Assembly (NCBI GenBank): GCA_903813345.2
Contig: CAIIXF020000001.1
Span: 8,866,001-8,930,000 of the forward strand
Reading direction: 5' to 3'
DNA from: Owenia fusiformis
Taxonomy: Eukaryota
DNA: 64,000 nucleotides
Shown: in pieces, positions 9,162 to 64,000 of the stretch
How positions within the stretch are numbered: the stretch's first letter is position 1
Layout: every line of letters starts with the position of its first letter
The notes under the pieces: generated by a model
Told to the model about the DNA's origin: nothing
Databases searched by the model: none
What the model saw: the letters and a program-made list of their open reading frames with translations, nothing else
Made by a program: the position numbers and the translations under genes

Positions 9162-12100
9162 TCATACTATGAAGTCAGATCCTTTGTTGAGATTATTAAG
9201 GCTATCTACACCACTGTCCAACCCATTGTCTGATGGTGTCGTGGTTGTGTCACTGGCAGCCTCTCTGGTACCATTCTCTATTAAAACCACTACAAGGTCA
9301 CTAAGACCTTTTTTGGGTGTACCTGCTGGGGTACCTAAATCATATTTATACTTTCTCCAGAACTTCTGGATCTTCTTTGCAGCATTGATCTCAACCTGTC
9401 GGTTCAACGTAGTGCTTATCTGCTCATACCCTTCTACATCAGGGACTATTACAGGAACATCTTCTATGTTATCTAGCTCAATCTCCCCTGTGCCAAGATA
9501 GTCCTTTGTTAATGCATCTAGGATGTCCTTGCAGTACACTCTATCCTCTGTACATATTGGAATATTCAGTGTTACCACTTTATAAAAGTTTGGAATGGGT
9601 TTGCGTAAAGGTTCATCTAAAGCATCTACAAAGTCACAGAGCTGATCTAAATGTATAAAGTGAGTGGCTTCTGGGTCAAACTTTTCCCATGTCTCATAGT
9701 AAAGATCAAAATCCTCGCCAGTTAATCCTTTCTGAACATCCTCAGTTGCTTGGCTGAAATTCTCCAGAATAACAGCAATGTACATATTCACAATTACAAG
9801 AAAGTTCAAAATAAGATAGCTGAGGAGATAAGCTACAGCCATTCCACGATTTCCACAATTAGGTGGTACACCATCAATTTCCTCTGTTGTACAGTCCTCT
9901 TCGTTTCCGATCCCTTCTAGGATTGAATTCCAACCTGCTGAAGTGGAAATTTGGAATAGAATTACCATCCCATTCCCCATTGTCTGGAAGTTGAATATTT
10001 CATCAATTCCCGCATGATACTTGACGTGCATGAAAAAGTTCATACCAAATATGGAATATATGAACATAACTAAGAAAAGTAGTAATCCAATGTTGATTAA
10101 AGCAGGTAAGGATACAAGTAGCGAGAATAATAAAGTCCTTATTCCTTTAGCTCCCTTTACTAGACGCAGGACACGACCTACACGGGCTATACGCACTACT
10201 CTTAATAATGTTGGGGAGACGAAGTACTTGGCGATTATATCAGCAAGAAACAAAGCTGAAATACAGAAATAAATAATTAAAATGATGTTATGTATAACAT
10301 ATCTTAGAGTGTGCAATTTTAGAATTTATACCATTTCATAATAATTAATAATGATTCTCTTTAACAAGATATACACATTGTCTTGTCAATGGATTTTTTC
10401 TTGGATTTAAAAATCATAAGTAGCTAATGCTATGCCTACCTAAAATTGACACAATAACAATGATGAAGTCAAATACATTCCAAGGGCTTTTAAAATAGTG
10501 CTGCCTTAGTCCAAACAATTTCAGCACACACTCCATGGTAAATACCACGATGAAGACTGCGTTGATCCAGTAGAGAATGTTGGAGTAAGAATCTGGCTGG
10601 TCATAGTATTCGCATGCCATCAGAACCATGTTTAACATGATGATGGCCATAATTGCGATGTCAAATTTCTGATCCATTACAAAGTCAAATATAGCAGCTT
10701 GGGGTCTCCACTGAAATGAACAATAAAGTGTTTATAATACATTATTGTTGATTGAAAATAAGGTGCTTAGATACTTTAAAACAACCCATTTGCTAATATT
10801 ATGATTAATTTTGTTGTATCTTTGAATTTATAATGATTTATTAATTGTTATTTGACTTATTTTCACTTCAAAATATGCTTTCCATGGTAGCTAATTAGGA
10901 AAATATCAGATATTACACCATGAACAAAATGCAAGTAGTATGCATTCTAAAGGTGAAATGTATGTGTTATCTTCAGATGCAGAGTGTAAAAATATGTACC
11001 TTAGGTCTTGGAACAGGTTTCTGTGGTTTTTGGGAGCCCATCTTTTTCATGGCCTGGTAATACCTCCTTTGCTCCTCTGTCATGAAGATCTCCATTCCTC
11101 CTTCGTACAAAAACAAAAGCAACAGTAAGGATCTAACCAACATAAAATGCAGCAGCATGGTTGGTTGATTGATAGAACATGTATTTAGGCTACATCAAAA
11201 CATGCTTGTTTTTTGTGAGAGTGTTTTAATAGTCTATGAGTTGATAGAATTAATGTCATCATATAATATATTGATATTATGATATTACCTCATATTACAG
11301 TGTACAAGGTTTACCGTTTAGCAGTTTAACATTGGTAAACTTTTAATTTATTAATTTCATGAGAGCAAAATGATATCTAATTATATTTAGTCTTTAGAAA
11401 AATAACCAACATGCTTTTAATGGTGTCATAAAAATGTTAATATAATGCAGCAAAATGTCTAGGTTATTTTCTACGCTATGAAAGTATTTCAATCTTAAAT
11501 TTTAAAAAATGCTTAACTTCTTTGAAAACTGATTTGTTTGAATTATTTAAAGGAAGAAAATAATTGTTCATTGGTGCGTTCTACCTGGTTGTCACTCTAA
11601 GATCTTGTTTGAATGGGATATGAATGAAATCAATCCATCTGTACAGGACAACTATTCAGAATAAAGGAGGATAACGTTTTTTATTCTCAATTGTCGATAC
11701 CTGACACAATGGCTTCTGAGGCAATCATAATGTTTATGTAGAAGGTGTTGCTTTTATATTTTGTCATTTCTTGGTCAGTGGGGTAATGTATGATGATCTC
11801 ATATCCTGATTGTTTCAATCTTTTTTATTAATCATTTTGGTCTCCTTAAGTTATGATTGATAGAATACAATTTTCAGAATTAACAAAAAAACACTTGCTT
11901 CGGTTTCAGCAACTTTAACATTTTGGAATCACTTTGGAAGTTTACCTTCATTTTATAATTATGTGCAAAATAATTTGATTAGTAGAAATAAAATCATAGT
12001 ATAGCGCTACCCTAATGCAAGCAAACTTAACTTGCTTTCAGATCCATACTGTATTTTCATTTTAAGCATGAAGGGGTTTCCCTGGAATACTAGGAATAAA

Positions 12101-21100: not shown

Positions 21101-24100
21101 ATTAAATCCATATTTGAAAGGCAACATACCTTCATTCCCTCCCATCTTGATACTGCCCTAAGAGGCCTTAATGCACGTAAGGTTCTAAGTGCCTTGAATG
21201 CACCTATCTTTCCTGCTCCTATCATCTCTGCTACTAAGCCAACTATGGATATCTGAAAAACATTGATTTGCATTAACAGAAATATACTCCTCAAAAATAT
21301 TTAAGGACCAGTCTTTTTCCTCATGTCTGTTTGACCTCTTATTTTCAAAGCCTGAAACAAAAGAAAAACTGATAATGTAAATGGATATGTACCTTGACTC
21401 TATTCTCTGTATTTCAGAAAATTTGGGTTGGGTTGCCAAAAGTCATATAAGAAAATATCAATCAATTTCAATTGCTCTCAAAAATGGAATGTAAATAGAC
21501 AATTGAATTTGCTAACTGTCTACAACAAAAATTGATTTGTTTCTCCAGGTTTTACAAAGTTATGAGTCTCAAAAGTCAATATCATTTCTCATAAAACCTC
21601 TCATTGAAATAACACAGGGTGTCAAAATGAGTTGTCAAAAATATGTTGATGCTCTATATCGGTAATTCTCACAAAGTAAGCTTAACAAAAAGCATGCTCA
21701 AAGTAAAACAATTCAATTGTCTACTCAGAAATTAGTTTTGATAAATGTTTTTACCGAATACATATCCAAAAATCTGATTTGCCCCTAACCCACCATTTCC
21801 CATTGGTTAACATGGGTTCTGCAATTTTTTTGAAATTCCTCAACTTTGACATCAATTGTTGACCGGACCTATTGTAATAGAGAGATTAAATTGAAAAATC
21901 CCTGAAATATAGAGAATAGGGTCAAGGTACATATCCATTTACATTATCAGTTTTTCTTTGGTTTCAGGCTTAGAAAATAAAGTTTAAAGATACATAAGGT
22001 TTAACATGTAAACCTTAACTTTTTTTAAGGAGTATATTGTTGCGTTTCTTTAAAGTTTTTAGTCATCCTTCCCTTTTGGCATTTGTGCTTATATATTCAT
22101 TGATATTGTACTACTTGATTTTTTTAGTTCGCTAAAATGTTCTTTTTTCTTTGTTAATTTTTTACCCTCTGTGTTTCTGAATGTAATGTTGAAGTATTTC
22201 AAATCAAATGTTTTCAATATATATATTTAGTACATACTGCTACAATAACAAAGTCCAACCAGCACCAGGCATCAGTGAAGTACTTCTTGTAGCCATAAGC
22301 GACCCACTTGAGTAACATCTCAAGAATGAATATGATAGTGAAAATTTTGTCCATTATATAAAGAGTGGTTTGTAGCCAGGGCCTATTAACTAGATGTATA
22401 TCTTCAATTGCCTGGAATAAAGATATTTATTATGCAATTAATGCATACTGTACATTTAATAACATTTAATGCTATAACATAAAATATAGAGCAAGGATGT
22501 CCATTTGAAAATTAATATTGCTTGCAAGAGTAAAATTCTTTTAGATTTTGAAGGGGTTATCTTATATGAACAAGTGGTTATGTGCATGCACTATTGAGTC
22601 AAATCTTTTCTAGGTGTTGTAATATGTTGAATTCTTTATGCTTTGAATCCAAATTTATACAGGTTTTACACAAACACATCAAGAATACTCACCAAAGCTA
22701 GACTGGATAGTAAAATCATAACAATGATAAATGTTTCAAAGTAATTGTTTTCAACCAGCCAGTAAGAGAACACACGTGCCTTCCAGTATTTCTGACCGAT
22801 TGGAGTTGATGTGCATGTTTGACAAAATATAAATTTGTCATAACAACCAGGACACCAGCAATCAAATGGGTCTTTGTCCTCTTCTATCTCTGTTTCTTCC
22901 TTGTTAGTGCCATCAGCCTCATCATCTGTCTTAAGTTTAGTATCCTCATTAACCGACAGATCATTAGAAGTATTATCTCCATCATGTTTAGAATCAGAAC
23001 CATCTTCAATTTCAATTTTTGTTGACTTCTCAGATACTCTATCTATATCATTTTGCATAGCCTCATTGTTTTCATCATCTATTGCTATTGCATGTTTGTT
23101 TTGCATAATGATTCCATTTACATCATTCAAGCTTTTCTGTGAAGAGCTTTTGTCTCTGCTCTGTGGAAGCAGTGTTTTTGTGTCTTCATTTCCATCTGTT
23201 TCAATTTCACTAGATTTTAAAGACTTTGTCGGACTTTTATGTCCATTTGTTCCATTCTCAATACACTCATTATCACTAGCACCATCTGGGTCACCCCTCT
23301 CTAATCCATTCATCTCAATAGTTTCACTTCTCAATGCCTTCACATTGTTTGGTTCTCTTTTCAATATTAACACACATATACTATACATAATACCATATTT
23401 TATTTTTGAGCCAACCCATTTAAACCTGTCGATGGCTTCAGCTATTTTATTTGGTTCATCATCATCATCATCTTGTTTTTGCAAACTGTCTGCTCCGAAT
23501 GAGCTCAGTAACAAAGCCAGAAACAGATTCAGCACCTAAAATAAAATGATAAGGTTGTTCTAAAGCTCCAATTACAAAAAGGCCAATGTTTCACATAGGA
23601 ATTTTGAAATATCCCAAGATTCAGTTTTAACATGGTCTGTGATTAAGAAAATGTTGATGTGTTCTTTTATATTACTACTTTTTATCTAGTTTGTGTAGTA
23701 ATGTGAATGTAACTCTTTTATAGAGGCAAATGAATTATACGTACATCCTACATAAACATTCAAATAGTTTGTCTATCAATTAACTTATTTTATTATTTGT
23801 TTGGTACTCATCTTATAATTAGATGCAATGTCTTACCACTAGATTTCCTAATATGACTGTCAGCATAAAGAATGGCACACACATTGCACCAGCTACGATC
23901 ATGCAATCCCACATTGATTCTATCCATTCCCCACACAAAACACGGAACACAATCATAAATGAGTGGAAGAAGTCATGCATATGCCAACGGGGCTTTTGAT
24001 CTAAGCCTAGGCGATGGTAGTTCAGTTCGTAATATTGTCCAAACAACTGCATTCCCATGACAGCAAATATGAAGATAAGAATTCCAACAACAAAGGTCAA

Positions 24101-34597: not shown

Positions 34598-35097
34598 NNN
34601 NNNNNNNNNNNNNNNNNNNNNNNNNNNNNNNNNNNNNNNNNNNNNNNNNNNNNNNNNNNNNNNNNNNNNNNNNNNNNNNNNNNNNNNNNNNNNNNNNNNN
34701 NNNNNNNNNNNNNNNNNNNNNNNNNNNNNNNNNNNNNNNNNNNNNNNNNNNNNNNNNNNNNNNNNNNNNNNNNNNNNNNNNNNNNNNNNNNNNNNNNNNN
34801 NNNNNNNNNNNNNNNNNNNNNNNNNNNNNNNNNNNNNNNNNNNNNNNNNNNNNNNNNNNNNNNNNNNNNNNNNNNNNNNNNNNNNNNNNNNNNNNNNNNN
34901 NNNNNNNNNNNNNNNNNNNNNNNNNNNNNNNNNNNNNNNNNNNNNNNNNNNNNNNNNNNNNNNNNNNNNNNNNNNNNNNNNNNNNNNNNNNNNNNNNNNN
35001 NNNNNNNNNNNNNNNNNNNNNNNNNNNNNNNNNNNNNNNNNNNNNNNNNNNNNNNNNNNNNNNNNNNNNNNNNNNNNNNNNNNNNNNNNNNNNNNNN
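34598..35097. other. Assembly gap (500 N); further 500-N gaps at 37098-37597 and 62598-63097
   Basis: Runs of N seen directly. Confidence 1.
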
Positions 35098-37597
35098 TGT
35101 TACATAATATTGTTTTCTATTTGACCTTAAGATGTATTTTGTAATTTATCTATGTACATGCGATCTCATAATTTATGAAAAATGAATACAAACAAATTGA
35201 GCCAGCAACTGCATTGTTACATATTGTTTTTTCTAGGGTAAAGATGTATTTTCAAATGACTGCGACGTGATGTATAAAGTGAATAGAATATAAAACGAAA
35301 AGCTGTCATTTATCCTAAGAAACTTAAGTAGTAATATAAATTCGAACATGGCTGTATTCACACCTTCTATAAACGGTGAACAAAGTCAATATTTCTCCCG
35401 GAGTATATTCGCGAACAATACCCCCGGTGATACGAGTAATGTGTGATGTCATAACGGCGGCCCGTAGTAAAGGTGGACCATAAATGATTATTCGAAACAT
35501 TTTGGTGAGTTTTCATGTTCGAATCGTAATATAGACCTCAGTCTCTTTATTAAACCCATATTCGAATCTTTGCCAGGAACTATGTCAAAGATGATCTATT
35601 CAAAAATAATACACTGCAAATTTATATTTTCATGAATCTTTAATTAATAACGATGATGATTAATATCAATATTTATATAAAACTCATTACTATTATTTGA
35701 GTTTACGGTAGTTTTTAAGAATCGTTTTTGGAAAAACGAAAAATATAAGAAAATAAAAACCTAAGAAAAATAATTCCATCGCGGGAAAAATACAAGAAAC
35801 CTTTTGAAAAGGTAACTGAACACTTTTGAAAATGAACATTTAAAAACAATTCTAAATAAACTATTTGAAAAAGAAGGAGTAAGAGAATCACCAGGTGAAT
35901 ATTGCTGTATTCCAATACGGGGACGACCGGGTGAATAAGATTTCAATACACCGACTACCAGGTAAAAACGATTTTAGGGAGGGATTTTAAGTAATAGTAG
36001 CACTGTGTAATATTAGTTTATTTGCTTGGAGGGATTCAGTATCATGGGTGACAATATGATATTTCTCCTAAAAATCAGGGCCTTTGGAATAAACCTACAT
36101 TTAATCCCGATAGGTAAATAACCTTTTTATCCCATGCTATGCATGACTCTCTCCGTGAAATCATTAATTAAAAATTTATTTCTGATATTTGTATAAAACA
36201 AAACCAGACTATTATTTGGTCTGCAAAATGTAACATAACTTTATTACATTTTGAAATATAAAAATGTTGTTGTAAACATTAACACGTCAACAACAAACAT
36301 AACAATACGTCGCATGCATGTCCATCATGATTGTACATTCTACATTGCTCAGATTGCTATGACGTTGACTGTCCGTGTCAGGGCACGATGATGTATTAAA
36401 GTTTGCCTAAGTTCAATAGGCTTACAATCTATACTTTTTACGTTTCACAATCTCTTTTTTTTAATTGCGTTTTGAAAATATCGTTTCTCGCATAAGAACA
36501 TCATTTTAGCAAGCTATTTAGAGCCAACTGAACGTAAGCTTTGTTTCGCAAAAATAATAAGGAGATGAAAACCATTTCGTGAGCGGGATTGGGAGGTGAA
36601 TACGAATTTCGTGAGCGGGACATGACGGAACAATACGATTTTTTCAATATCAAAATTATTCCCGAGTGTTATTCACCGGGATGTAGAAGTATCATGAATT
36701 AAAAATATAATTTTGATAAGACAGTAATATTTGGAAATCTAATAAAAATAGAAAGGTGCAACTTTTTAAGACTCATCACTTTTTATATTTTGAGTAGATG
36801 GGGAAATATTTTTATAACAATTTAAACTTCAATGATTCCAGTCAATATCACGAAATTTGCGCCGCTATATTTGAAAGTAATTAAAATTAACTCATTTTTC
36901 CATTAGCTGCATTATACAAATTGAATTTTTAAATATAATATTTAAAATTCTACGAGGAAAATTGTATATTTGATAGCTAGTCAAAACAGAAAACCACAAA
37001 TAAAGGAAGAAATATATTGCCATACGAAGTTAGCTTAGTATTTTCTTTCATAAATAAGTAAATAATGTTCAAACATAATAAGATTTTAAATATTCACNNN
37101 NNNNNNNNNNNNNNNNNNNNNNNNNNNNNNNNNNNNNNNNNNNNNNNNNNNNNNNNNNNNNNNNNNNNNNNNNNNNNNNNNNNNNNNNNNNNNNNNNNNN
37201 NNNNNNNNNNNNNNNNNNNNNNNNNNNNNNNNNNNNNNNNNNNNNNNNNNNNNNNNNNNNNNNNNNNNNNNNNNNNNNNNNNNNNNNNNNNNNNNNNNNN
37301 NNNNNNNNNNNNNNNNNNNNNNNNNNNNNNNNNNNNNNNNNNNNNNNNNNNNNNNNNNNNNNNNNNNNNNNNNNNNNNNNNNNNNNNNNNNNNNNNNNNN
37401 NNNNNNNNNNNNNNNNNNNNNNNNNNNNNNNNNNNNNNNNNNNNNNNNNNNNNNNNNNNNNNNNNNNNNNNNNNNNNNNNNNNNNNNNNNNNNNNNNNNN
37501 NNNNNNNNNNNNNNNNNNNNNNNNNNNNNNNNNNNNNNNNNNNNNNNNNNNNNNNNNNNNNNNNNNNNNNNNNNNNNNNNNNNNNNNNNNNNNNNNN

Positions 37598-42810: not shown

Positions 42811-44559
42811 TGATCCTCAAAATGCCCCATATTCCTTCCGGACTAATATAAGCGGGGCATTATTTTCGAGAAATCTTGTACATGAGATTAGAACGGTTGT
42901 GTGAGCGTCTTGTGTCAAGCGGTAGCCAGTTTAGACAGTGCAGTACTTGAGAATTGTTTGAACCTTATATAGATTCCGCAACGATAATGCCTGCTTTATA
43001 ATGTAAATATTCAAGAAGACTGAGCTTGGTCACATTGCCACATCCATAAACAATATCATAAACGTCAAGGTGTGGCTGAATAAAAGATTTAAACAGTGTG
43101 TGAACACTCGAGACTTTAGTTTAAGTGCTTTGAGTGGGTTTAAGTTTATCAACGTGCGACATTTAGTTTATGTAGGTGTGTATGAATAATTTATTAGAAT
43201 GTTACATATTGTTAGGTTATAAACAGTATTGTGAAGTATAGTATGAAGTATACATAAAGAATATTTTCAAGTGTGATGCATGTTTGCAAACTAAACACAA
43301 CATATGGAGATATTGGGATACAAACTCTATACAAACATGTTGAGTTTGAATTTAATACCAATACCAATATCAACTCACATTATTACCACCTTGCCGGGCC
43401 AGTTCTAGGGGTTTTAGTGCTAGTTCAGAAGGTATTCATTTTACTTTATCGACCTGAGCAATTTGTGACATCATAGTGGTGGTCAAGAATGCATTTAACG
43501 ACCGGTCGAGAATGCATTTAACGACCGGCAATTTTCCCCGGGATATCGTTCAGTGAGTAAGATTTTCTTACTGTTTCAGTCCTGGTCGTTAACGGTGGTA
43601 GTAATACTAATAATAACGTCATTTCTGCGGGCCTTTGGCCCTCGGTCCAATATTTCACTATATTGCTCTTCGAAATGACGTTATTGTACTATTGATTTTC
43701 AAATTCAGTTTGAAGCCAAATTGAATGCCGATATGGATATTGGATCTTCATTTCACTGCAAGGCATGTTTTTGAATCTCGGTATCAAATCAAATATGGTC
43801 TCATGGCTGTTTTTAAAATACATGCGTTCTTTTATCACCATATGGTTGAGTAAACGAGGAACATATGATAATGCTATTTGTTCCGGGGTTTGCGTATACC
43901 ATTGGAAAAGTATGATTTATATTATAAGATCACAAAAGTCTGCAGTTGTTTAACTAGTCTCATCGGGGGCATTTTATGAAGTCCAAATAATCGTTTTATA
44001 TTCAAATTACATACCACAAAAACGATATAACTAGCTTACAGTCGCACGTGTACAGTCTTCGAAAAACAATGTATACGACGTGCAACATAGTACTTTAGGA
44101 TATTAAATAAATCAGTTCGTCAAGACAACAAGAATTTTCTAAAAATAAGAGAGAGATGTAAAAAATAAATTCCGAACGATAGTGATGAAAGAACGTACAA
44201 ATTGTTTTTGAGACTTTTTATTGATCTTACGCCTCGTGAATGTAAAATTGAAACACGAGTGCAAAAGAACGTGAAAAAGAACGTGAAAAACCAAAAGTGC
44301 AAGTACCAATGTAACTGTCGAGAAAATAGCGGCGTATGCAACGCAAAACAATTTAAACAATCCACGTTCCATTACAAGCATGAAATTGCAATCAAAGACT
44401 TTTGTCGAACCTTTAGATTAACGTCCATACTGAGGATTTGAAAGTGTTATGTACTTTAATGAAATATATATTTCTCAATATATCATATAACAAACAAACA
44501 AACATATATCAAAATGGTCTTTTCGACATCATAAATCTTGGGAAAATCTCACCCTGAAA

Positions 44560-45006
44560 ATGTTACAAGATCTGGGCTTTACTCAGCTTATCAACAATGA
44601 TACTATATCTCGAGTTAAATGCCATCTTAACGAGGTCAAAGAAGCTTGTATCAGAGCAGATCACGTCGAATGGCGCAACAGTCTTTGGGACGACAGTCGT
44701 AACCCTAATGGCAACAAATTACGGACATATAGATTGTTTAAAACACATTCCATGCAGCCCGCCCATTATACTTGTATCAACATGTCAAGGAGTGAACGCA
44801 GAGCTATTGCCCAACTTAGAAGTGGAACACTCCCATTGAAGATCGAAACTGGACGATATAACAATACCCAACTCCAGGATCGCCGATGTCACTGTGATAA
44901 TTTAACTGTTGAGGACGAGTTTCATTTTCTTTTACAGTGCAATAGTTATGAAGAACTGAGAACTCCATTGTTTTTAGATTGTCTTAAAGTGAGCGCCAAA
45001 GTTTAA
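44560..45006 (+). mobile_element. LINE (L2/Crack/Daphne-like) ORF2 C-terminal fragment
   Basis: KLRTYRLFK...IAQLRSGTLPLKIETGRY...RRCHC...EDEFHFLLQC: the zinc-knuckle region downstream of reverse transcriptase. Confidence 0.85.
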
Positions 45007-54011: not shown

Positions 54012-54989
54012 CTATTTAATTCTAGACAAACACATTTCGATCAACTAAACATGCTACTATTCAAGAAAGTACAAATGGCATCTTTTTGACTTGTATTTAT
54101 TACAGTCCGAGATCCAGAAGATCTTTCCTGACGAAAAGCCCACATTATGAAACACCTTGTACGTTTACCTATAAGTATAAATATACGTTATAACACTGTG
54201 TTATAAGTTGTACTTTCACTAGGTGCGAAATCTCTCTAATATAACATAACATATATCTTTTTGTCGATAAACTGGAAGTAATGTTTTTGAGTCGAGAGAT
54301 GAGTGATAATGCTTAGTTACAATGTTTTCACCCAGAGACTAAATGACTTCATATTTATTCATGATACCATATTGATAACATGCCGCTGTATTGTGTCATT
54401 GCGAATTCTCTTGAAGATCTATACACCTTCAGAAGAAAATAAACTTAAGAATGTGTTAACATCAATGATACATCTTGAGTTATCAATTTCATTCAAACAC
54501 GAGAATACATAGTTGTCGATTTTGGAGGTCGACACTTTTCAGATTGATTTATATAAATGTAACAAATATTTGTTCAAACAGTTCTTCACCATATACTAAA
54601 AATAAATCCGAAAAGTTAATCTTTAAACCTTGAAACACTGATTTAAGATTTTTATTATCTATTAAGTAGCTTCTAGAGCTCTGTACCTGAATTAATCAGT
54701 TATTCCACAATTTGACATGGATTAAAAAAATATGCGAATGACGCTATATTGTATCTGTACTATAAAGCAAAAAGAAGTCAGTTTTCAAAACTGATATTCA
54801 GCAAAGCACGATACATGTAGATGTCGATATATACAACTTGTATATGTCTAAGTGCCACGTAGTTTGTCGGACTATCAATATTAGCGAAATATAGAGGTAC
54901 AGTTCCAAAGAGGAAAAAATATTAGGCGAGGTATCGTACTTCCGTTACATTGAACTTCCAATTTGAATTTGCAAGATCCTGATATAACC

Positions 54990-57900
54990 ATGGCTTCAGA
55001 TCAAAAGGGACTTGAACGAGATATAAAAGATGTGTTAAAAAGATGCGATGGAAGTGAATTGAAAAGATTCCTTCATAATTCATCAACCCAACCAAAGTGT
55101 CCAAAGGACATCATAGTATGGGCATTTAGGAACAATGTCAGGTTGACCAGAAAAATCATTCAAATCTTAGTGGAATATGGAACAGATGTCAACGCCAAAT
55201 ACGAAAGGTCTGATATGTTCTCACCAGATGATGGAAAGACTTCATTGATGTATGCTGTAGAGAAGAAGAATGTGGAATGTTGTCGCGCTTTAATAGATCA
55301 TGGTGCTGACGTTAATGCCAGTGACGAGGATGGGAAGACTTCATTGATGTATGCTGTAGAGAAGGAGAATGTGGAATGTTGTCGTGCATTGATAGATCAT
55401 GGTGCTGACGTTAATGCCAGTGACGAGGATGGGAAGACTTCATTGATGTTTGCTGTAGAGAAGGAGAATGTGGAATGTTGTCGCGCTCTGATAGATCATG
55501 ATGCGGACGTTAATGCCAGTTACAGATATGGGAAGACTGCATTGGTGCATGCTGGAGAGAAGGAGAATGTGGAATGTTGTCGCGCTCTGATAGATCATGG
55601 TGCTGACGTTAATGCCAGTGACATGTATGAGAAGACTGCATTGATGTATGCTGTAGAGAAGGAGAATGTGGAATGTTGTCGGGCTCTGATAGATCATGGC
55701 GCTGACGTTAATGCCTGTGACAGATATGGGAAGACTGCATTGATGTATGCTGTGGAGAAGGAGAATGTGGAATGTTGTCGCGCTCTGATAGATCATGGTG
55801 CTGGCGTTAATGCCAGTGATATGTATGAGAAGACTGCATTAATGTATGCTGTAGAGAAGGAGAATGTGGAATGTTGTCGGGCTCTGATAGATCATGGTGC
55901 TGACGTTAATGCCAGTGACAGATATGGGAAAACTGCATTGATGTATGCTGTTGAGAGAGAGAATGTGGAATGTTGTCGCGCTCTGATGGATCATGGTGCT
56001 GACGTTAATGCCAGTGACATGTATAAGAATACTGCATTGATATATGCTGTAGAGAAGGAGAATGTGGAATGTTGCCGCACTCTGGTGGATCATGGTGCTG
56101 ACGTTAATGTCAGTGACATTTATGGGAAGACTGCATTGATGCATGCTGTACAGAAGGAGAATGTGGAATGTTGTCGGGTTCTGATAGATCATGGTGCAGA
56201 CGTTAATGCCAATTACATGTATGGGATGACTGCATTGCTGCATGCTGTAGAGAAGGAGAATGTGGAGTGTTGTCGGGCTCTGATAGATCATGGTGCGGAC
56301 GTTAATGCCAGTTACATGTATGGGGAGACTGCATTGATGCATGCTGTAGCGAACGAGAATGTGGAATGTTGTCGGGCTCTGATAGATCATGGTGCTGACG
56401 TTAATGCCAGTGACAGATATGGGAAAACTGCATTGATGCATGCTGTAGAGAACGAGAATGTGGAATGTTGTCAAGCTCTTATAGATCATGGTGCGAAGGT
56501 TAATACCAGTGACAAGGATGGGATGACTGCATTGATATATGCTGTAGAGAATGAGAATGTGGAGTGTTGTCGGGCTCTGCTGAGTCATGATGCGGACGTT
56601 AATGCCAGTTACAGATATGGGAAGACTGCATTGATGTATGCTGTAGAGAAGGAGAATGTGGAATGTTGTCGCGCTCTGATGGATCATGGTACTGACGTTA
56701 ATGCCAGTGACATGTATGAGGAGACTGCATTGATGTATGCTGTAGAGAAGGAGAATGTGGAATGTTGTCGCGCCCTGATAGATCATGGTGCTAGCGTGAA
56801 TTCCAGTGATATGTATACGAAGACTGCATTGATGTTAGCTGTAGAGAAGGAGAATGTGGAATGTTGTCGTACTCTGATGGATCATGGTGATGACGTTAAT
56901 GCCAGTGACAAATATGGGAATACTGCATTGGTGCATGCTGTAGAGAAGGAGAATGTGGAATGTTGTCGCGCTCTGATGGATCATGGTGCGGACGTTAATG
57001 CCAGTGACATATATGGGAATACTGCATTGGTGCATGCTGTAGAGAAGGAGAATGTGGAATGTTGTCGCGCTCTGATGGATCATGGTGCGGACATTAATGC
57101 CAGTTACAGCTATGGAAAGACTGCATTGATGTATGCTGTAGAGAAGGAGAATGTGGCATGTTGTCGTGCTCTGATAGATCATGGTTCGGACGTTAATGTC
57201 AGTGACGAGAATAGGAAGACTGCATTGATGTATGCTGTAGAGAAGGAGAATGTGGAATGTTGTCGCGTTCTGATGGATCATGGTGCGAACGTTAATGACA
57301 GTGACATGTATGGGATGACTGCATTGATGCAAGCTGTAGAGAAGGAGAATGTGGAGTGTTGTCGTGCTCTGATAGATCATGGTGCGGACGTCAATGCCAG
57401 TGACAAGAATGGAAAGACTTCATTGATGTATGCCATAGAAAATGACTGTGTGGAATGTTGGCGGTTTTTGATAGATCATAATGCTGATCAAGGTGGTAAT
57501 CTACTGCTTTATCCAATAGCAAACACAACTGGAAATTACATAGAACTTTACTACAGCCTAACCATATTAGCTGGCATGGTTGACAAAAGTTACAAAACTC
57601 TGTTTCAGATAAATCAAAATGCAAATATAGATCAACAATACGCAGCTAGAAAGCAATTGGATAATTTCTATAAGAATTCAAAACTCTCTCTACGTCGAAG
57701 AGCAAGGCATTCTGTCAAACTTATTCGAAATAAATACGGTTACAAAAATATTATCGACGATTTAGTTGACAGTGGGTACCTACCATCAAAGATGAAACCC
57801 TTTATGCTATTTGAGGAAGACATCAAGGAGATAAAGACCATTCTTACAGAGCTACATAACTGTCATATCAAGGAATCCGAAGCCATTACTGCTTCAGGTA

Positions 57901-60900
57901 TGTTGCTCCATATATTATTATGTGCTTTATTATACTTGTACCCCACATTTGGGCAAAGTGTACAGCTTAAACAGAAAAAATGAAAAAGCTTAACTAATTA
58001 TCTATATATTATATTAACTAATCAAAGGGTGCTTGATCATTGCAAGATTTTATTGGATGTATTTCGTGTTTTTTTTTCTCTCGATAAAAATATTAAATAG
58101 AAACATTAATTTATGTTTCACGTTATTCATGTTTTCTAAATTTTGACAGTGTTTTTTTTTATTTTATCCATGTAACTTGACCGAACATCTTTAACTTATT
58201 GCATTCTAATAGGAAATGGCATTCTGAACCGGTTTTCTTGTTACACATTAAACATTTTCTTTCTTCAATAGGGGTAATTGGTTTTGTGTAACGACCTGTT
58301 TCGATTTCTAATTTATGTGCGCTAATTCTTAGCTTTGTCAAGTTATTTCTGTCTATTTCATTTTTGATTAAATCCGAGTAGGGTTCCTTGTTCCATTTTG
58401 CTTTTATTATCTTATAAAACCTCAATTTACCATTATTTGATTTTATTTCAAATTGTATGTATCTATTTTCCAGTAATTTCTTAATTTCTCTTGGTTTTAA
58501 GTTTAAATAGTTTGGTGAAGTACCATTGTAAATATATTTAAGTACATCATTGATGTGCGAGAGCCATGATTGTTTATTCATATCTGTCAGATGTTTATTT
58601 ACCTTCATAAGAACATTTTATTTACCTTTATAAGAACATTTCGTCAAAAAGGAAATCACATAAGCACACCGGAATAGCCTGACAACGGTAAAGTCAGATA
58701 CCGTTGTCACAAATGGCGGACATAACTGTCGCTTTAACTCTCCAATCACTTGGTCCTCGTTTCATGGGACTTTATTGTCGCTAATTCTGTGCATGTATTA
58801 AGCTCTTGTGATATGAAATCCCAACTTCGATCAAATTGTGGAGTGAATCGCCACAATATAGCGTCTTCGATATCGTCAATGACAACGGAATCTGAATTTA
58901 CCATATGCTGTTGTCTTGTAAAATTTCTCAAATTTAGATTGCGATATACCAAATTTCCTGAAAAATCAAAACCTTTATTTTACTGATATTCATTGATCTT
59001 TCATGTAATATCACTTTCGGAAAATCGCTTTAAATTAATATCTGATAGTGAAAGATGACACTGGATAATCTGCATTATTCACTCGTACATTCAGAGCTAT
59101 ATTTTCTGTGGCACACAATAAGCTTACGTAAATTGGTTTATGCAATGATAAACTCCTTAGTGCTAATATATAGGCTAACCAAATGCCTGCAGGGGGAGGG
59201 GTCAAACAAACTAGAGTAAAATTCTGACATACAAAAAATGATTTATGGAACATCTCTTAAATTGTTGACCTACTTCTTTCAAAACAATACTTTTTTGATA
59301 CTACCACATTAATATGTATTAAAGATGTAATATAAAGTTTGTAAAATCCTGACATATTCTACTTTAAACCATTCATTTTACCAATGATGATCGTTAGATA
59401 TTTGGATGAACGCCATAATTTCAAACATATTGGGACCTTTCAGTTTTGAGTTAACAGCAATATATTGTTTTCATATTTAGAACGTGAGACACGAGAAATG
59501 CAAGAGAAAAGTATCAAAAATAGTGAACCAAAACAAAGAAGTGAGCATCATACAAAAATGGAGGCTTTTGAAATTCAAACAAATGATACTCCGAGCGAGG
59601 AACGTACAAGAGCAAACAAGAAGCTGACAAATGAGGGTATTGGATCTGCAACCAAAAGAGATGAATGTCAAGCAGATGAGGACGGGAAATTAACAAAACT
59701 GAGAAAAACAGAAACTGATGGCCACATGATTTCTCAAACCACCGACAAATCTACAAAAGATCTACGAAAAGAGATGGTTGATTTGCCAGTTGATTCCTCT
59801 CCTCGTCAAGGAAATCCTACGGATAAGAAACCTTATGACGAACTACTTCCGTGTGCAGAAAAATTACTGAGGAAGTATGTTTAATATGCTTTTTCCTCCA
59901 ATAATTTTAGCATTTGTAATTTTCAGAACTATTTCAAACTCCATCAAGTAGGATAATAAAATCAAACATTCTTAGAATAACAAAAATTTTAATACCGCAT
60001 GTTGCTATTAACATACGGGTGAAACATATGGATACAAATCGACCTCATTCTTTATGTAAATAATGAAAATAACAGTTTCCTCCGATGAAAGTTCATCGAT
60101 TTTGCTATAAAGACACAACGTCAAGGGTTTAGATAATATATGATTGAAACTTTTACGAATCAAAATAAAAATTGGGAAGTATATATAATTATCCAGAGAA
60201 GGGTGGAAATAATTATTCCACCCTTATGTTATTGTGATTAATTTATAGATAAAATGAATTTTTATAGGATTCCAGTGGTGAAGGGCTATGGAATGCGGGA
60301 AGATGGCTACTTCACAATTCACATCGTTGATGGTTATGTGAAGAAAACATCACGCTACATCAAAAAGCATATACCTGGGTACAAATTCAATTTTGTGCCA
60401 TGGATGAAAGGGGAGCGTATTCACTTGCTCGGATGTACTGGGGCATCACTCAAAAGTAGGGTGATAGATAGAGCGGAGTTCGATTCGATTGGAACTCTCG
60501 GTGGACTTGTTGCAACTAATACAGTAAATGGTGTCGAACATGTGTATGCTGCAACAGCCAATCACGTTGTAGACATTAATATTCTTGAAGAGGATCAAAA
60601 CCAAAATACCAAAACCGAACAAAACAAAATAGAATTCATGACTTGGTCGAAAGATGATGAGTCTGATATACGTTCAATAGGTACTGAAGTTCCATACAAT
60701 ATACCACTAAAGTTGGAGGAGCGTGAAAGTGAGGACGAATGGGTTATTTTCAAAGACAGTACTGACGATGACAACGACGCCGTATCTGAAGACAGTCTTG
60801 AAGATGGCTTTACCGACGATAGTGATACTACTGATGATGAAAATGCGAAAGATTGTGTATCAGCACAATATGATATTGCACTTGTATTAATAGATGAAAA

Positions 60901-62224
60901 GCACAAAGACTTGGTAGATCAATGCAAACCATGTCATGAATGTTGTTCGACCATCTCATCGACCAACAAAGATATTCTTACAAAAGGAAAAGTTGTAAAA
61001 CTGGGATTTTCAAAAAGTCTGAACAAAGGGAAAATAAAGTGTTTAAAATATGCAGGAGAAATCGAAATCAATAACAAAACAGCATGGTGCTCTAATTTAG
61101 TTATTATCGGTTCTGTGCTGTCGAGCGAATACTTCAGTGAAGAAGGAGATAGTGGCACAATAGTAGAGATTCAGTATGATTCCACCATTGGAGATCACAG
61201 CCCGGATTGCTTCATGATTTTTGCGGGATGGGAAAAGGAATGCAGTTGGAATACCTGGAAATGTCCCGTGTCTGTAGCTTTTAATCTCAAGCCTGCTCTG
61301 GAGAAATTGAGTGAACAATTAAATAACGACGGTGAGACTGAAAAGATGTTTAGATTGTCATGTTGTAAACATGTCACATCAGCCTCTATTTCAATACAAG
61401 CAGATAACGAGCCTGGCGAGGTGGTAAACAAAAGCAACTCATCATCTCAGTCGTCAATAAATGAAATAGAAACGGATCTGGACTGCGCATCGGGAACAAT
61501 TTGCAAAAATAATGAAGCCTCACTTCATACAAAAGCTGAGCAGTGTACTGACAAGCGTCGACAGAAACTGTCACCAAGCATGATTCATGTGTCTCGAGAT
61601 GATGTGACGGAGATTAATTTCTGTGGCGATCGCTCAGCCGACACAACTAAAGGCGGTATGTACGAGTAGCCATAACTAATGCCTTGGTCACATTTGCTCC
61701 TATCCATCGGCCGGCGCCCGGCCGATTGAGTGTTTTGCTCAATATTGTATTCTATTTTGAACAAAATACTCAATCGGCCGGGCGCCGTCGTGAAAATCGG
61801 AGCAAATGTGACCAAGGCATTAGTGTATTCTATTCTAAGAAGGCTATGTTTAAACATAAGCTATTTACAGGTAATTTTAATTGATACTTCATTTCTGCTG
61901 GTTTTGCCCCCAACCTTTTTATCCTTGTTGATTTAAAATCTAACCTTGCTAATTTGTCATCAGTGTAACCATGCATAAACAAACGCAAATAATATTTAAC
62001 TACCTTAGTTAATAACTCCAATCTCTTAACCCTATATATTTATCCATTCACACTTAGGGGTGGAAAAAGCAGACATCAATGCTGAAGATGTTCTGGCTGG
62101 AAATGAAACATCAACTGAGGAACTTCCTGTACCAACGAAAGAATGTGATAGTTTGACGATCCTGGCTGGCATTTTTATATTTATATCGGTTTTCCTCATC
62201 TTGCCTTGTTGGTTTTGCTTGTAG
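54990..62224 (+). CDS. Ankyrin repeat / SOCS-box-like / trypsin-fold serine protease / C-terminal transmembrane protein; exons 54990-57897, 59481-59874, 60268-61655, 62058-62224 (1618 aa)
   Basis: accATGG start; three GT-AG introns with matching phases (1, 2, 1) join three ORF-track ORFs and a short terminal exon into one 4857-nt frame. 23 ankyrin units; SLRRRAR...LPSKMKPFML; GTLGGLV, ATANHVV, YDIALV, GDSGT; ends LTILAGIFIFISVFLILPCWFCL*. Confidence 0.82.
55229..57490 (+). repeat. Coding tandem array of 23 x 99-bp ankyrin repeats
   Basis: 33-aa unit GKTALMYAVEKENVECCRALIDHGADVNASDxY with high nucleotide identity between units, all within one exon. Confidence 0.97.
58159..58608 (-). mobile_element. 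LINE ORF2 C-terminal fragment in intron 1 of the ankyrin-protease gene
   Basis: KLRFYKIIK...LTKLRISAHKLEIETGRY...ERKCLMC...SECHFLLEC. Confidence 0.85.
58665..58905. mobile_element. Partial copy of the MITE at 6797-7302
   Basis: cacaccggaatagcctgacaacggtaaagtcagataccgttgtcacaaatggcggacataac... aligns with 6797-7040. Confidence 0.8.
61676..61824. mobile_element. ~150-bp palindromic MITE (Harbinger-like)
   Basis: actaatgccttggtcacatttgctcc...ggagcaaatgtgaccaaggcattagt, with an inner cgcccggccgattgagt / actcaatcggccgggcg stem. Confidence 0.75.
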
Positions 62225-64000
62225 TTGAGAAAATCAGGTACAACTACTTTGTATTTAGACTTCAAATTCACTAAACATTTTTTATCTGGGGGCATTTGGA
62301 ACTTAGTCACAGATCGTTTTATTATTTTGTTGAAAATGTAGAACTTGTATTTTGCTTGTAATTATGAAAACATAATGTCACGTTATTATATTCTTCATCA
62401 TTTCTTGCCATGGAGTCAACACACTGTGAAGAATTGAATCCCGACTTTGAGAAAAATATTTAATTTTGAGGATACCTAATGGACAGGTATTGTATTGTAT
62501 TGTATTGTATTGTATATTCTTTATTTCCTCCATTAAATGAAGATTACAATTTAACATTTTAACTTAACTCAAAATTAAGGACAAATAAAATAATAATNNN
62601 NNNNNNNNNNNNNNNNNNNNNNNNNNNNNNNNNNNNNNNNNNNNNNNNNNNNNNNNNNNNNNNNNNNNNNNNNNNNNNNNNNNNNNNNNNNNNNNNNNNN
62701 NNNNNNNNNNNNNNNNNNNNNNNNNNNNNNNNNNNNNNNNNNNNNNNNNNNNNNNNNNNNNNNNNNNNNNNNNNNNNNNNNNNNNNNNNNNNNNNNNNNN
62801 NNNNNNNNNNNNNNNNNNNNNNNNNNNNNNNNNNNNNNNNNNNNNNNNNNNNNNNNNNNNNNNNNNNNNNNNNNNNNNNNNNNNNNNNNNNNNNNNNNNN
62901 NNNNNNNNNNNNNNNNNNNNNNNNNNNNNNNNNNNNNNNNNNNNNNNNNNNNNNNNNNNNNNNNNNNNNNNNNNNNNNNNNNNNNNNNNNNNNNNNNNNN
63001 NNNNNNNNNNNNNNNNNNNNNNNNNNNNNNNNNNNNNNNNNNNNNNNNNNNNNNNNNNNNNNNNNNNNNNNNNNNNNNNNNNNNNNNNNNNNNNNNNAAT
63101 GCAATTATGTGGATGAAGAAGTTCATATAGTGGGCAACATTGAAAATTACTCCTGGAACACTTCTGAAACAACCCATTTCACTATTTAAGTCTCATATTC
63201 CCATTGTGTTCACTAGGGCTCAAATTTAGAAACTCTCAGAAGTCGGCTTTGTAAAAATCACATAGACTACTTTCACGGATGATGAGAATTGGTTTGATAT
63301 TTGAAGCGAGGTTAATTTGGGTTGGCAGAAACATTTGATCTTACTCTGTGTCTGATTCCCAAGGCAAACGTTAACGTAAGCAATGTGTAAAAAATTATAT
63401 CTAAGAAAACTGTTGTAAAAATGGTGCTCAATGATACGGTTGAAGATACAACAACCCAACCATTCATGATTGCTACTTTAAAAACAACTCAAATGACGTT
63501 AGTGCTCATGGGGATGAAGTAGATGACCCCAAGGGCGTTAGTGTACATGTCTCTAAAGCTGGCCCTATTTATGAACATGCTAAACTAGGAGTAGTCCTGG
63601 GTACCCCAATTGTCGGAGCCTAGTACGTGTAAACGAAGCTCTCTCGAAGCAAAATGAAATTATTGAAATGGCAAGTTCTGGATGTAAGACGATTAAAAAA
63701 ATTCAATTGTAGGTGATCTCATCATGTGATATCTTACTTAAAGTCTACAAGTAAATTACAGGATATCCGTCCATACAGATAGCTATTCTAGATTAGAAGC
63801 CCTGGTGTAAATATACATCTTAGAAACCCATCAATATTTCAGGATGAAGCACGAAAAAGTTGCATTATGTGTCTTAGGATTGATATTGGGCGTCTGGGGA
63901 AATACAAGGTGACATTTTTCTTAACTCAGCATCTCAATTACAAATGTTTACGGGGAATGGGTTTTGCTGAATTCAATAAGGTGTCACGAGAGAGACGCTT

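Follow-up and report, generated by a model that had tools for sequence, protein, structure and literature searches.

To our knowledge, cytosolic proteases of the chymotrypsin fold are rare in animals. Work on NAL1-like and Ssy5-like enzymes has dealt with plants and fungi; NAL1 requires assembly for an active catalytic triad, and Ssy5 requires the removal of an inhibitory N-terminal part. Rice NAL1 (PDB 8hau, 8has, 7y77, 8pmg and 8pn2; Nal1_C, PF25819) is an intracellular chymotrypsin-fold serine protease with its catalytic residues in the order His-Asp-Ser. Its triad is H234/D291/S385, and its oligomers form a cage in which transcription regulators are degraded (PMC12012508). In the cytosolic PA-clan protease Ssy5 of yeast (MEROPS S64), the catalytic part is preceded by a large non-catalytic region; Ssy5 is kept inactive by an N-terminal prodomain, which the proteasome removes (PMC3145550, PMC6761765). 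In vertebrates, FAM111A is an intracellular trypsin-like protease that acts in antiviral restriction (PMC9798293, PMC10469034). Trypsin-like peptidases also serve as effectors in bacterial conflict systems, and lineage-specific expansions with ankyrin repeats as the variable parts are described in marine invertebrates (Kaur et al. 2021, PMC8195603). Here we describe a predicted gene of the annelid Owenia fusiformis in which a large ankyrin array is joined to a protease resembling NAL1. It lies at positions 54990..62224 of a stretch of 64,000 nucleotides (assembly GCA_903813345.2, contig CAIIXF020000001.1, positions 8,866,001 to 8,930,000, forward strand), which is called the window below and sets the numbering. 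Among the matches listed in the literature on NAL1, Nal1_C, S64 and Ssy5, no animal NAL1-like or S64 protease was described, and neither was the architecture of the window protein.

The gene model is built from four stop-to-stop open reading frames (ORFs) on the plus strand (54954-57983, 59450-59884, 60242-61669 and 62030-62224). In silico splicing of 54990-57897, 59481-59874, 60268-61655 and 62058-62224 gives 4857 nt with 1618 codons and one terminal stop. The donor is GTATGT in all three introns, each acceptor is an AG behind a T-rich tract, and GC content is 0.39-0.43 in the exons versus 0.27-0.31 in the introns and flanks. A first-pass annotation, made from the DNA letters only, had joined the four ORFs through three phase-matched GT-AG introns into a protein of 1618 residues, and its coordinates and length were reproduced exactly. 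The predicted protein consists, in this order, of an ankyrin array, a conserved tail, a charged linker, a 462-residue protease exon and a C-terminal hydrophobic stretch.

All exons are on the plus strand. Exon 1 (54990..57897) contains the start ATG, an N-terminal cap, the ankyrin array and a post-ankyrin helical tail, and ends at the donor CAG/GTATGT. Its N-terminus is similar to that of a complete paralog that begins with M (P0007, see below). Intron 1 (57898..59480; 1583 nt, GC 0.31) contains a minus-strand ORF derived from a retroelement and a high-copy repeat. Exon 2 (59481..59874) encodes the linker, which was correctly called charged (20% K+R, 21% D+E), and its final ~25 codons form a conserved N-terminal extension of the protease module. 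In exon 3 (60268..61655), a small alpha/beta N-subdomain is followed by the PA-clan protease core, which contains an acidic insert, and by a tail rich in Ser, Thr and Asn. A putative exon 4 (62058..62224), in phase with the strong donor at 61655, encodes a hydrophobic tail of 23 residues (62153-62221) and the stop (62222-62224). The N-terminus of the model is hydrophilic (the first 30 residues average -0.99) and no signal peptide is evident, in line with the first description.

The ankyrin array (55224..57500, plus strand) comprises 23 tandem repeats of 33 residues, encoded by 99-bp units; the repeat number had been counted correctly from the start. Pfam Ank matches 23 stretches (E 1.4e-180), and Tandem Repeats Finder reports 22.8 copies of a 99-bp unit at 55231-57487 with 88% matches and zero indels. 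In the 33-residue register, 23 units span model residues 79 to 837. Pairwise DNA identity among the units is 86% on average and 98% at most, which suggests recent amplification or homogenisation. At repeat positions 2, 3, 5, 13, 14 and 33, which we take to be those randomised in designed ankyrin binders, 39 nonsynonymous and 3 synonymous differences from the consensus codons were counted, versus 73 nonsynonymous and 43 synonymous at the remaining positions (Fisher p = 1.3e-4). A wider position set, picked post hoc (1-5, 10, 13, 14 and 33), gives 61/8 versus 51/38 elsewhere. We read this pattern as a binding face that has probably been diversified on a fixed scaffold.

The 462-residue translation of 60269-61654 was used as the protease query, and residue numbers in this part refer to exon 3. 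The protease core spans residues 56-365 (60434..61363, plus strand; VIA-align range 55-365). In an alignment of nine members (A2), H99 (in TANHVV), D202 (in YDIA), G293 and G296 are invariant (9/9), and the window motif around the predicted nucleophile is GDSG. The catalytic codons are those of His99 (60563-60565), Asp202 (60872-60874) and Ser295 (61151-61153). The nucleophile position 295 is Ser in 7/9 members, Cys in P0005 (GDCG) and Gly in P0007, and in P0003 a His in place of D294 gives GHSG. Also invariant are C222, C225, C226, H310, C314, C365 and C366, which are suspected to form a metal site. The spacing from Asp to Ser is 93 residues in the window versus 94 in NAL1. Between His and Asp lies an insert of ~50 residues that is 42% Asp+Glu; across the paralogs its length ranges from ~30 to ~170 residues, and in P0001 (compared with window 60700-60860) it is expanded by tandem Asp/Ser-rich repeats. 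The region behind the core is poorly conserved among members.

Profile searches gave few matches. Pfam found nothing on the whole protease exon, and Peptidase_S64 was likewise without a match there. When the C-half piece was searched, Nal1_C (21.2 bits, E 1.8e-4) was detected, and it is the only Pfam family matched by more than one member (3/9 at E<=1; P0005 at 16.3 bits). The companion family NAL1_N (PF25608) matched neither the window nor the paralogs. A search of PDB sequences with the protease exon alone returned 0 matches at E<=10, and the A2 profile found only three DegP-like chains (E 0.043-0.13), with the match at the His motif at E 0.043. The Atlas neighbours of the protease, which are leads only, are clusters bearing Nal1_C, Peptidase_S64 or Trypsin, some of them molluscan.

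Structural comparison was more informative. An AlphaFold2 (AF2) model of the protease exon built with 13 sequences is mostly beta; a single-sequence model with a predicted local distance difference test score (pLDDT) of 32.3 was not used. In a Foldseek search of the PDB, ranks 1-11 are all rice NAL1, the best being 8hau_C (E 7.9e-4, probability 1.0), which is the sole match at E<=0.001. VIA-align superposes NAL1 with Z 12.6 and a root-mean-square deviation (rmsd) of 4.0 over 209 aligned residues, and hundreds of PA-clan chains follow at Z 10-12. A Foldseek-independent search of 48,161 representative chains returned PA-clan proteases for all of its best 50 matches (Z 8.8-12.4), which cover exon-3 residues 55-362. 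In that wide search NAL1 ranks 6-7 (Z 11.2-11.3) and has the longest alignments in the top ten (207-211 residues). The structural alignments begin at NAL1 residue 200. These matches, together with the order His, Asp, Ser of the predicted catalytic residues and the GDSG motif, make the assignment of the 462-residue exon to the chymotrypsin-fold (PA-clan) proteases firm for a predicted structure, and they agree with the trypsin fold proposed in the first-pass annotation.

The NAL1-like label is the best available one and falls short of membership in the NAL1 family. Sequence identity between NAL1 and the window protease is 13-18%, and the window protease differs by its ~50-residue acidic insert, its conserved Cys/His positions, its fusion to ankyrin repeats and its animal rather than plant host. 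Ssy5 likewise places a cytosolic PA-clan protease behind a large N-terminal non-catalytic region, and an S64-bearing Atlas cluster lies nearby; however, Ssy5 is without ankyrin repeats and the window protease is without a Peptidase_S64 match. FAM111A is an animal PA-clan protease that is not secreted, and is matched structurally at Z 10.4-10.6, but it has no detectable sequence relation to the window protease, a different N-terminal region, and other structures score higher. The first description had not noted the specific likeness of the protease to NAL1 and Ssy5.

Searches for relatives of the protease gave 11 matches among 1.84 billion representatives, and a twelfth (P0012) came from a 90%-cluster search. 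All 12 (P0001 to P0012) are unnamed proteins of O. fusiformis. With no Pfam model at threshold on the protease exon and only these relatives, the architecture lies outside named families, as had been suspected, but it is already present, unnamed, in a public annelid proteome, which had also gone unmentioned. Six of the 12 records are partial (P0004, P0006, P0008, P0009, P0010 and P0011), and P0002, P0003, P0005, P0007 and P0012 are complete. The cassette occurs with different partners. P0003 (2685 residues) has OB_HELZ2, RNB and two superfamily 1 (SF1) helicase cores, with the protease at the C-terminus (2255-2656); its human namesake HELZ2 is an interferon-regulated exoribonuclease (PMC10516660, PMC9839780). 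In P0009 the C-end of the protease is followed by a Roc GTPase, and P0010, its accession neighbour on the same chromosome-size contig, holds the N-subdomain; we infer that the two are halves of one gene. P0006, P0007 and P0011 are ankyrin-linked (in P0011 a partial repeat is seen in the sequence and the alignment, and Pfam finds none). P0002, P0005 and P0012 are annotated as protease-only, and P0012 has a Cys/Glu-rich repeat tail.

A tree of 10 rows, midpoint-rooted for drawing only and excluding P0009, P0010 and P0011 (<180 aligned residues), places the HELZ2-linked cassette of P0003 as sister (97/95) to a clade of the window protein, P0001, P0002 and P0006. The ankyrin-linked P0007 is found in the other half. 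The closest relative is P0001, with 92% identity to the window protein in 357 columns and a sister position supported at 100/100, and the protease-only P0002 is sister of the ankyrin-linked P0006 on short branches. By the placement of the HELZ2-linked and ankyrin-linked members, the protease cassette has switched partners within one lineage.

The paralogs also bear on the gene model. P0006 and P0011, both partial records, carry ankyrin repeats, tail, linker and protease in one chain, and the spliced model is collinear with both across tail, linker and protease. The residues that flank junction 1 align to an uninterrupted stretch of P0006. A conserved segment at junction 2 is present in P0001, P0002, P0003, P0004, P0006, P0010 and P0011. 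The 28 codons that would be read through after 57897 (stop 57981-57983) have no counterpart in the paralogs. The first proposal, that a large ankyrin array and a trypsin-fold protease belong to one gene model, is therefore supported at the sequence level at junctions 1 and 2 by the P0006 and P0011 chains, with P0001 spanning junction 2.

Behind the array, the tail (model residues 838-969) is conserved in the ankyrin-linked P0006, P0007 and P0011. It includes a motif at residues 897-941 (57678..57812, plus strand) that had been called SOCS-box-like. By eye it reads S-L-x3-A-x3-V and, ~25 residues later, L-P-x5-F-M-L-F, which may recall a BC box followed by a Cul5 box. Searches did not bear the name out. 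On the 142-residue tail (57471-57896) neither SOCS_box nor any other Pfam family was found at E<=10; in P0006, P0007 and P0011 Pfam has no SOCS box match at E<=0.01; the PDB sequence search returned one unrelated match only (E 0.19); and in the Atlas search, where the recognition value was under the usual level, no SOCS cluster was found. The position of the BC-box Cys is occupied by Ala, and the motif is internal, ~680 residues before the C-terminus of the 1618-residue model. On the sequences available, it is a family-specific conserved element whose identity as a SOCS box is without statistical support. The recruitment of Elongin and Cullin, which had been suggested as well, is not supported either: members of the family share the motif, but none of the statistical tests run bore it out, and it is not C-terminal.

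The reading we prefer, and give a little better than an even chance, is that of a cytosolic recognition-plus-protease protein: its variable ankyrin face would bind a target, and the NAL1-like protease in cis would cut that target or its own linker. The array may act as the recognition surface because the differences between units are concentrated at the positions of the ankyrin binding face. It would present its ligand, either a protein or another copy of itself, to the protease in cis, and cleavage would fall on the bound target or on the linker, which is charged and probably coiled or disordered. By analogy with NAL1 and Ssy5, the N-terminal half, or oligomerisation, probably controls the activity of the protease. 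The protein may end in a C-terminal membrane anchor.

What the family does is a separate question. Most plausibly, judging by analogy, it is a lineage-specific, fast-evolving set of recognition-plus-protease proteins used in defence or genetic conflict, since the same cassette is found on a HELZ2-like helicase/RNase, on a Roc GTPase and on ankyrin arrays, and is detectable in one species only. Single-species detectability, many diverged copies, the swapping of partners and a diversified binding face together favour defence or conflict. Bacterial and fungal immune proteins, such as those of the STAND/EAD conflict systems with trypsin-like effectors (PMC8195603), also pair a repeat sensor with a protease effector, and in marine invertebrates there are lineage-specific expansions with variable ankyrin repeats. 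The window protein differs in having no Death-like, TRADD-N or STAND module detectable by Pfam, and no annelid or HELZ2 is named in the part of PMC8195603 that was available. The idea of a repeat sensor coupled to a protease effector, with which the locus was originally introduced, fits the cassette fusions of the paralogs and the nonsynonymous excess at the ankyrin binding surface; its membrane tether and its Elongin/Cullin arm are not supported. A bolder extension is speculative and, taken as a whole, rather doubtful: Owenia-type annelids may have evolved intracellular immune receptors of their own, in which a NAL1-like protease would be the executioner or signalling module on interchangeable sensors (ankyrin arrays for proteins, the HELZ2-like part for foreign RNA, a Roc GTPase as switch). 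They would fire on ligand-driven assembly, in keeping with the oligomerisation that NAL1 requires, some would be membrane-anchored, and the sensor-protease immune proteins of bacteria and fungi would have in them a counterpart among animals.

Several observations weigh against the recognition-plus-protease reading. Regarding the protease, the AF2 model is of low confidence (predicted template modelling score 0.50, mean pLDDT 51.8, 67/462 residues at >=70), and NAL1 is within about 1 Z of DegS, Deg1, the L5 protease and many other PA-clan proteases. The Nal1_C score remains under the gathering cut-off of 26.1 bits. Some copies may be inactive, since P0005 and P0007 are without the Ser and P0003 has a His for the Asp directly before it. 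Regarding the fusion, none of the 10 sequencing runs listed for the window (word shares 0.06-0.11) is recorded as RNA, and no contig joining across any of the three introns was found in four of them, where the contigs were short and DNA-like and exon depth was low, which is uninformative either way. P0001 is annotated as a protein of 529 residues that starts at a Met inside exon 2 and is without the ankyrin part. No relative of 810-2310 residues is found among 5361 candidates, which is weak evidence, and no protein of 532-1696 residues sharing the tail is found among 229. The hydrophobic C-terminal end is absent from all five complete paralogs. The immune or conflict role is argued from analogy only.

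Some of these points are shared with alternative explanations. The window could hold two transcription units or two isoforms, one for an ankyrin protein terminated by the read-through stop and one for a protease-only protein starting in exon 2, so that the fusion would be a prediction artefact here. The internal start of P0001, the protease-only annotation of P0002, P0005 and P0012 and the missing relatives of 810-2310 residues would all fit, and the 1.6-kb intron 1 could hold a promoter. On the other hand, P0006, P0007 and P0011 have ankyrin, tail and protease sequence in one chain, both junctions are collinear with P0006 and P0011, and the read-through peptide is without counterpart. Some of the short models are suspected to be truncated, because half of the relatives are partial and the protease-only P0002 is a close sister of the ankyrin-linked P0006; P0001 itself is located on an 18-kb contig. 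We consider the two-unit explanation unlikely, and a protease-only isoform arising from intron 1 is possible. A further alternative takes the protein for an ASB-type substrate receptor of a Cullin-RING ligase, with a true SOCS box as the docking site for Elongin B/C and Cullin 5 and the protease as an extra function. ASB proteins too have ankyrin repeats followed by a short motif, and in the window this motif, predicted to be helical, stands directly behind the repeats, resembles BC and Cul5 boxes by eye and is conserved in 4/4 ankyrin-linked members. ASB proteins carry far fewer ankyrin repeats, and their SOCS box is terminal, whereas ~680 further residues including the protease lie behind the window motif. 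With Ala at the BC-box Cys and no SOCS_box match in Pfam (tail, P0006, P0007 and P0011), the PDB sequence search or the Atlas, the ligase explanation is quite improbable.

The origin of the cassette could also be viral, if it were a domesticated 3C-like protease of a picorna-like virus instead of a cellular NAL1-like inheritance. In Foldseek against viral models, the polyproteins of iflaviruses and picorna-like viruses score E 4.5e-4 to 1e-3, close to the E-value of NAL1 (a further point against a specifically NAL1-like protease). The GDCG of P0005 has a Cys nucleophile like the 3C enzymes, and hepatitis A virus (HAV) 3C is matched at Z 10.9-11.1. The viral models fit poorly nonetheless (query-normalised template modelling score, TMq, 0.17-0.28; rmsd 11-29 A), NAL1 gives the longer alignments (207-211 versus 190 residues for HAV 3C), the nucleophile is Ser in 7/9 members, and Nal1_C is the only sequence-level family signal, which leaves the viral origin with very little likelihood. 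The main functional rival of defence is a signalling or developmental protease, like Ssy5 or NAL1, that would cleave a transcription regulator recruited by the ankyrin repeats, with the N-terminal half as an inhibitory pro-region. In its favour, the closest solved relative, NAL1, acts on such regulators in its cage (PMC12012508), and the N-terminal prodomain of Ssy5 is inhibitory (PMC3145550, PMC6761765). The window cassette likewise stands behind a large N-terminal region. Developmental regulators are usually conserved, however, and this cassette is detectable in one species only among 1.84 billion representatives, in at least 12 diverged copies shuffled onto HELZ2-like and Roc modules, with an ankyrin array that appears recently amplified and variable at its binding face. 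A signalling role of this type is accordingly regarded as improbable, and defence or conflict continues to be preferred for the family.

The C-terminal exon is the least certain part of the model. The only windows with a 19-residue Kyte-Doolittle average (KD19) above 1.6 start at residues 1592-1600, so the last ~23 residues are the sole transmembrane-like segment. Exon 4 has a GC content of 0.41 versus 0.27-0.30 in its flanks, and its GC by codon position (0.48/0.37/0.35) is nearly equal to that of exon 3. ATTAAA at 62532 and AATAAA at 62584 follow it by ~310 and ~360 nt. Junction 3 and exon 4 are without a homolog counterpart and rest on phase, GC and the codon-position pattern, and whether the exon is real is roughly an even call. 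The hydrophobic C-terminus reported earlier thus stands as the only transmembrane-like segment of the model, but on an exon without homolog support. Membrane tethering is possible, but was not borne out, resting on one putative exon of 167 nt that is common to no complete paralog.

Two side observations were made at exon 4. A contig of 220 letters from one sequencing run, covering 62010-62160, has insertions of 4 and 5 letters at 62127-62129, nine in total, which keep the exon-4 frame and faintly suggest that it is open in a related copy as well. The post-ankyrin tail (57555-57575) and the start of the hydrophobic tail (62150-62170) share the heptapeptide SLTILAG, with a chance of such a match of about 1e-3 (rough estimate). 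A recent DNA duplication of the post-ankyrin tail as the source of exon 4 was considered and rejected: the codons of the heptapeptide differ at 5/7 positions and there is no wider DNA similarity.

The window as a whole is AT-rich (GC 0.23-0.42) and contains three scaffold gaps of 500 N each (34598-35097, 37098-37597 and 62598-63097). The last of these starts 373 nt behind the predicted stop, placing the 3' end of the gene near a gap. Intron 3 contains a palindrome resembling a miniature inverted-repeat transposable element (MITE) at 61675..61824, outside the protein, with 71-nt arms that are 85% complementary. It begins 20 nt behind the exon-3 donor, and sequencing depth on it runs from thousands to hundreds of thousands in 4/4 runs, versus single digits on the exons. 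A very high-copy repeat at 58548-59039 in intron 1 reaches a depth of up to about 2e5 in sequencing runs. The minus-strand ORF of intron 1 (58159-58617) and a plus-strand ORF at 44491-45006 are 35% identical over 82 residues (E 3e-11) and share the ending ETGRY...C..C...HFLL.C; from their sequences, the two are probably relics of the C-terminal end of a single retroelement family. Further upstream, two minus-strand exons of the voltage-gated sodium-channel type were identified at 9162-10325 and 22666-23535 (Pfam Ion_trans, E 3.4e-36, with a GPHH/IQ region; Na_trans_assoc, E 7.3e-14), and they confirm that the surrounding DNA is that of an animal.

The locus predicts a protease fused to a large, recently amplified ankyrin array, and its paralogs combine the same protease with a Roc GTPase or with a homolog of HELZ2, the interferon-induced RNA helicase/exonuclease. 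Should the family serve in defence, it would bring a class of protease effector to invertebrate innate immunity, linked in design to the sensor-protease systems of bacteria and fungi. Otherwise, the NAL1-type proteases would gain an animal branch with a built-in substrate-recruiting domain, which would be useful for studying how such enzymes are targeted and gated.

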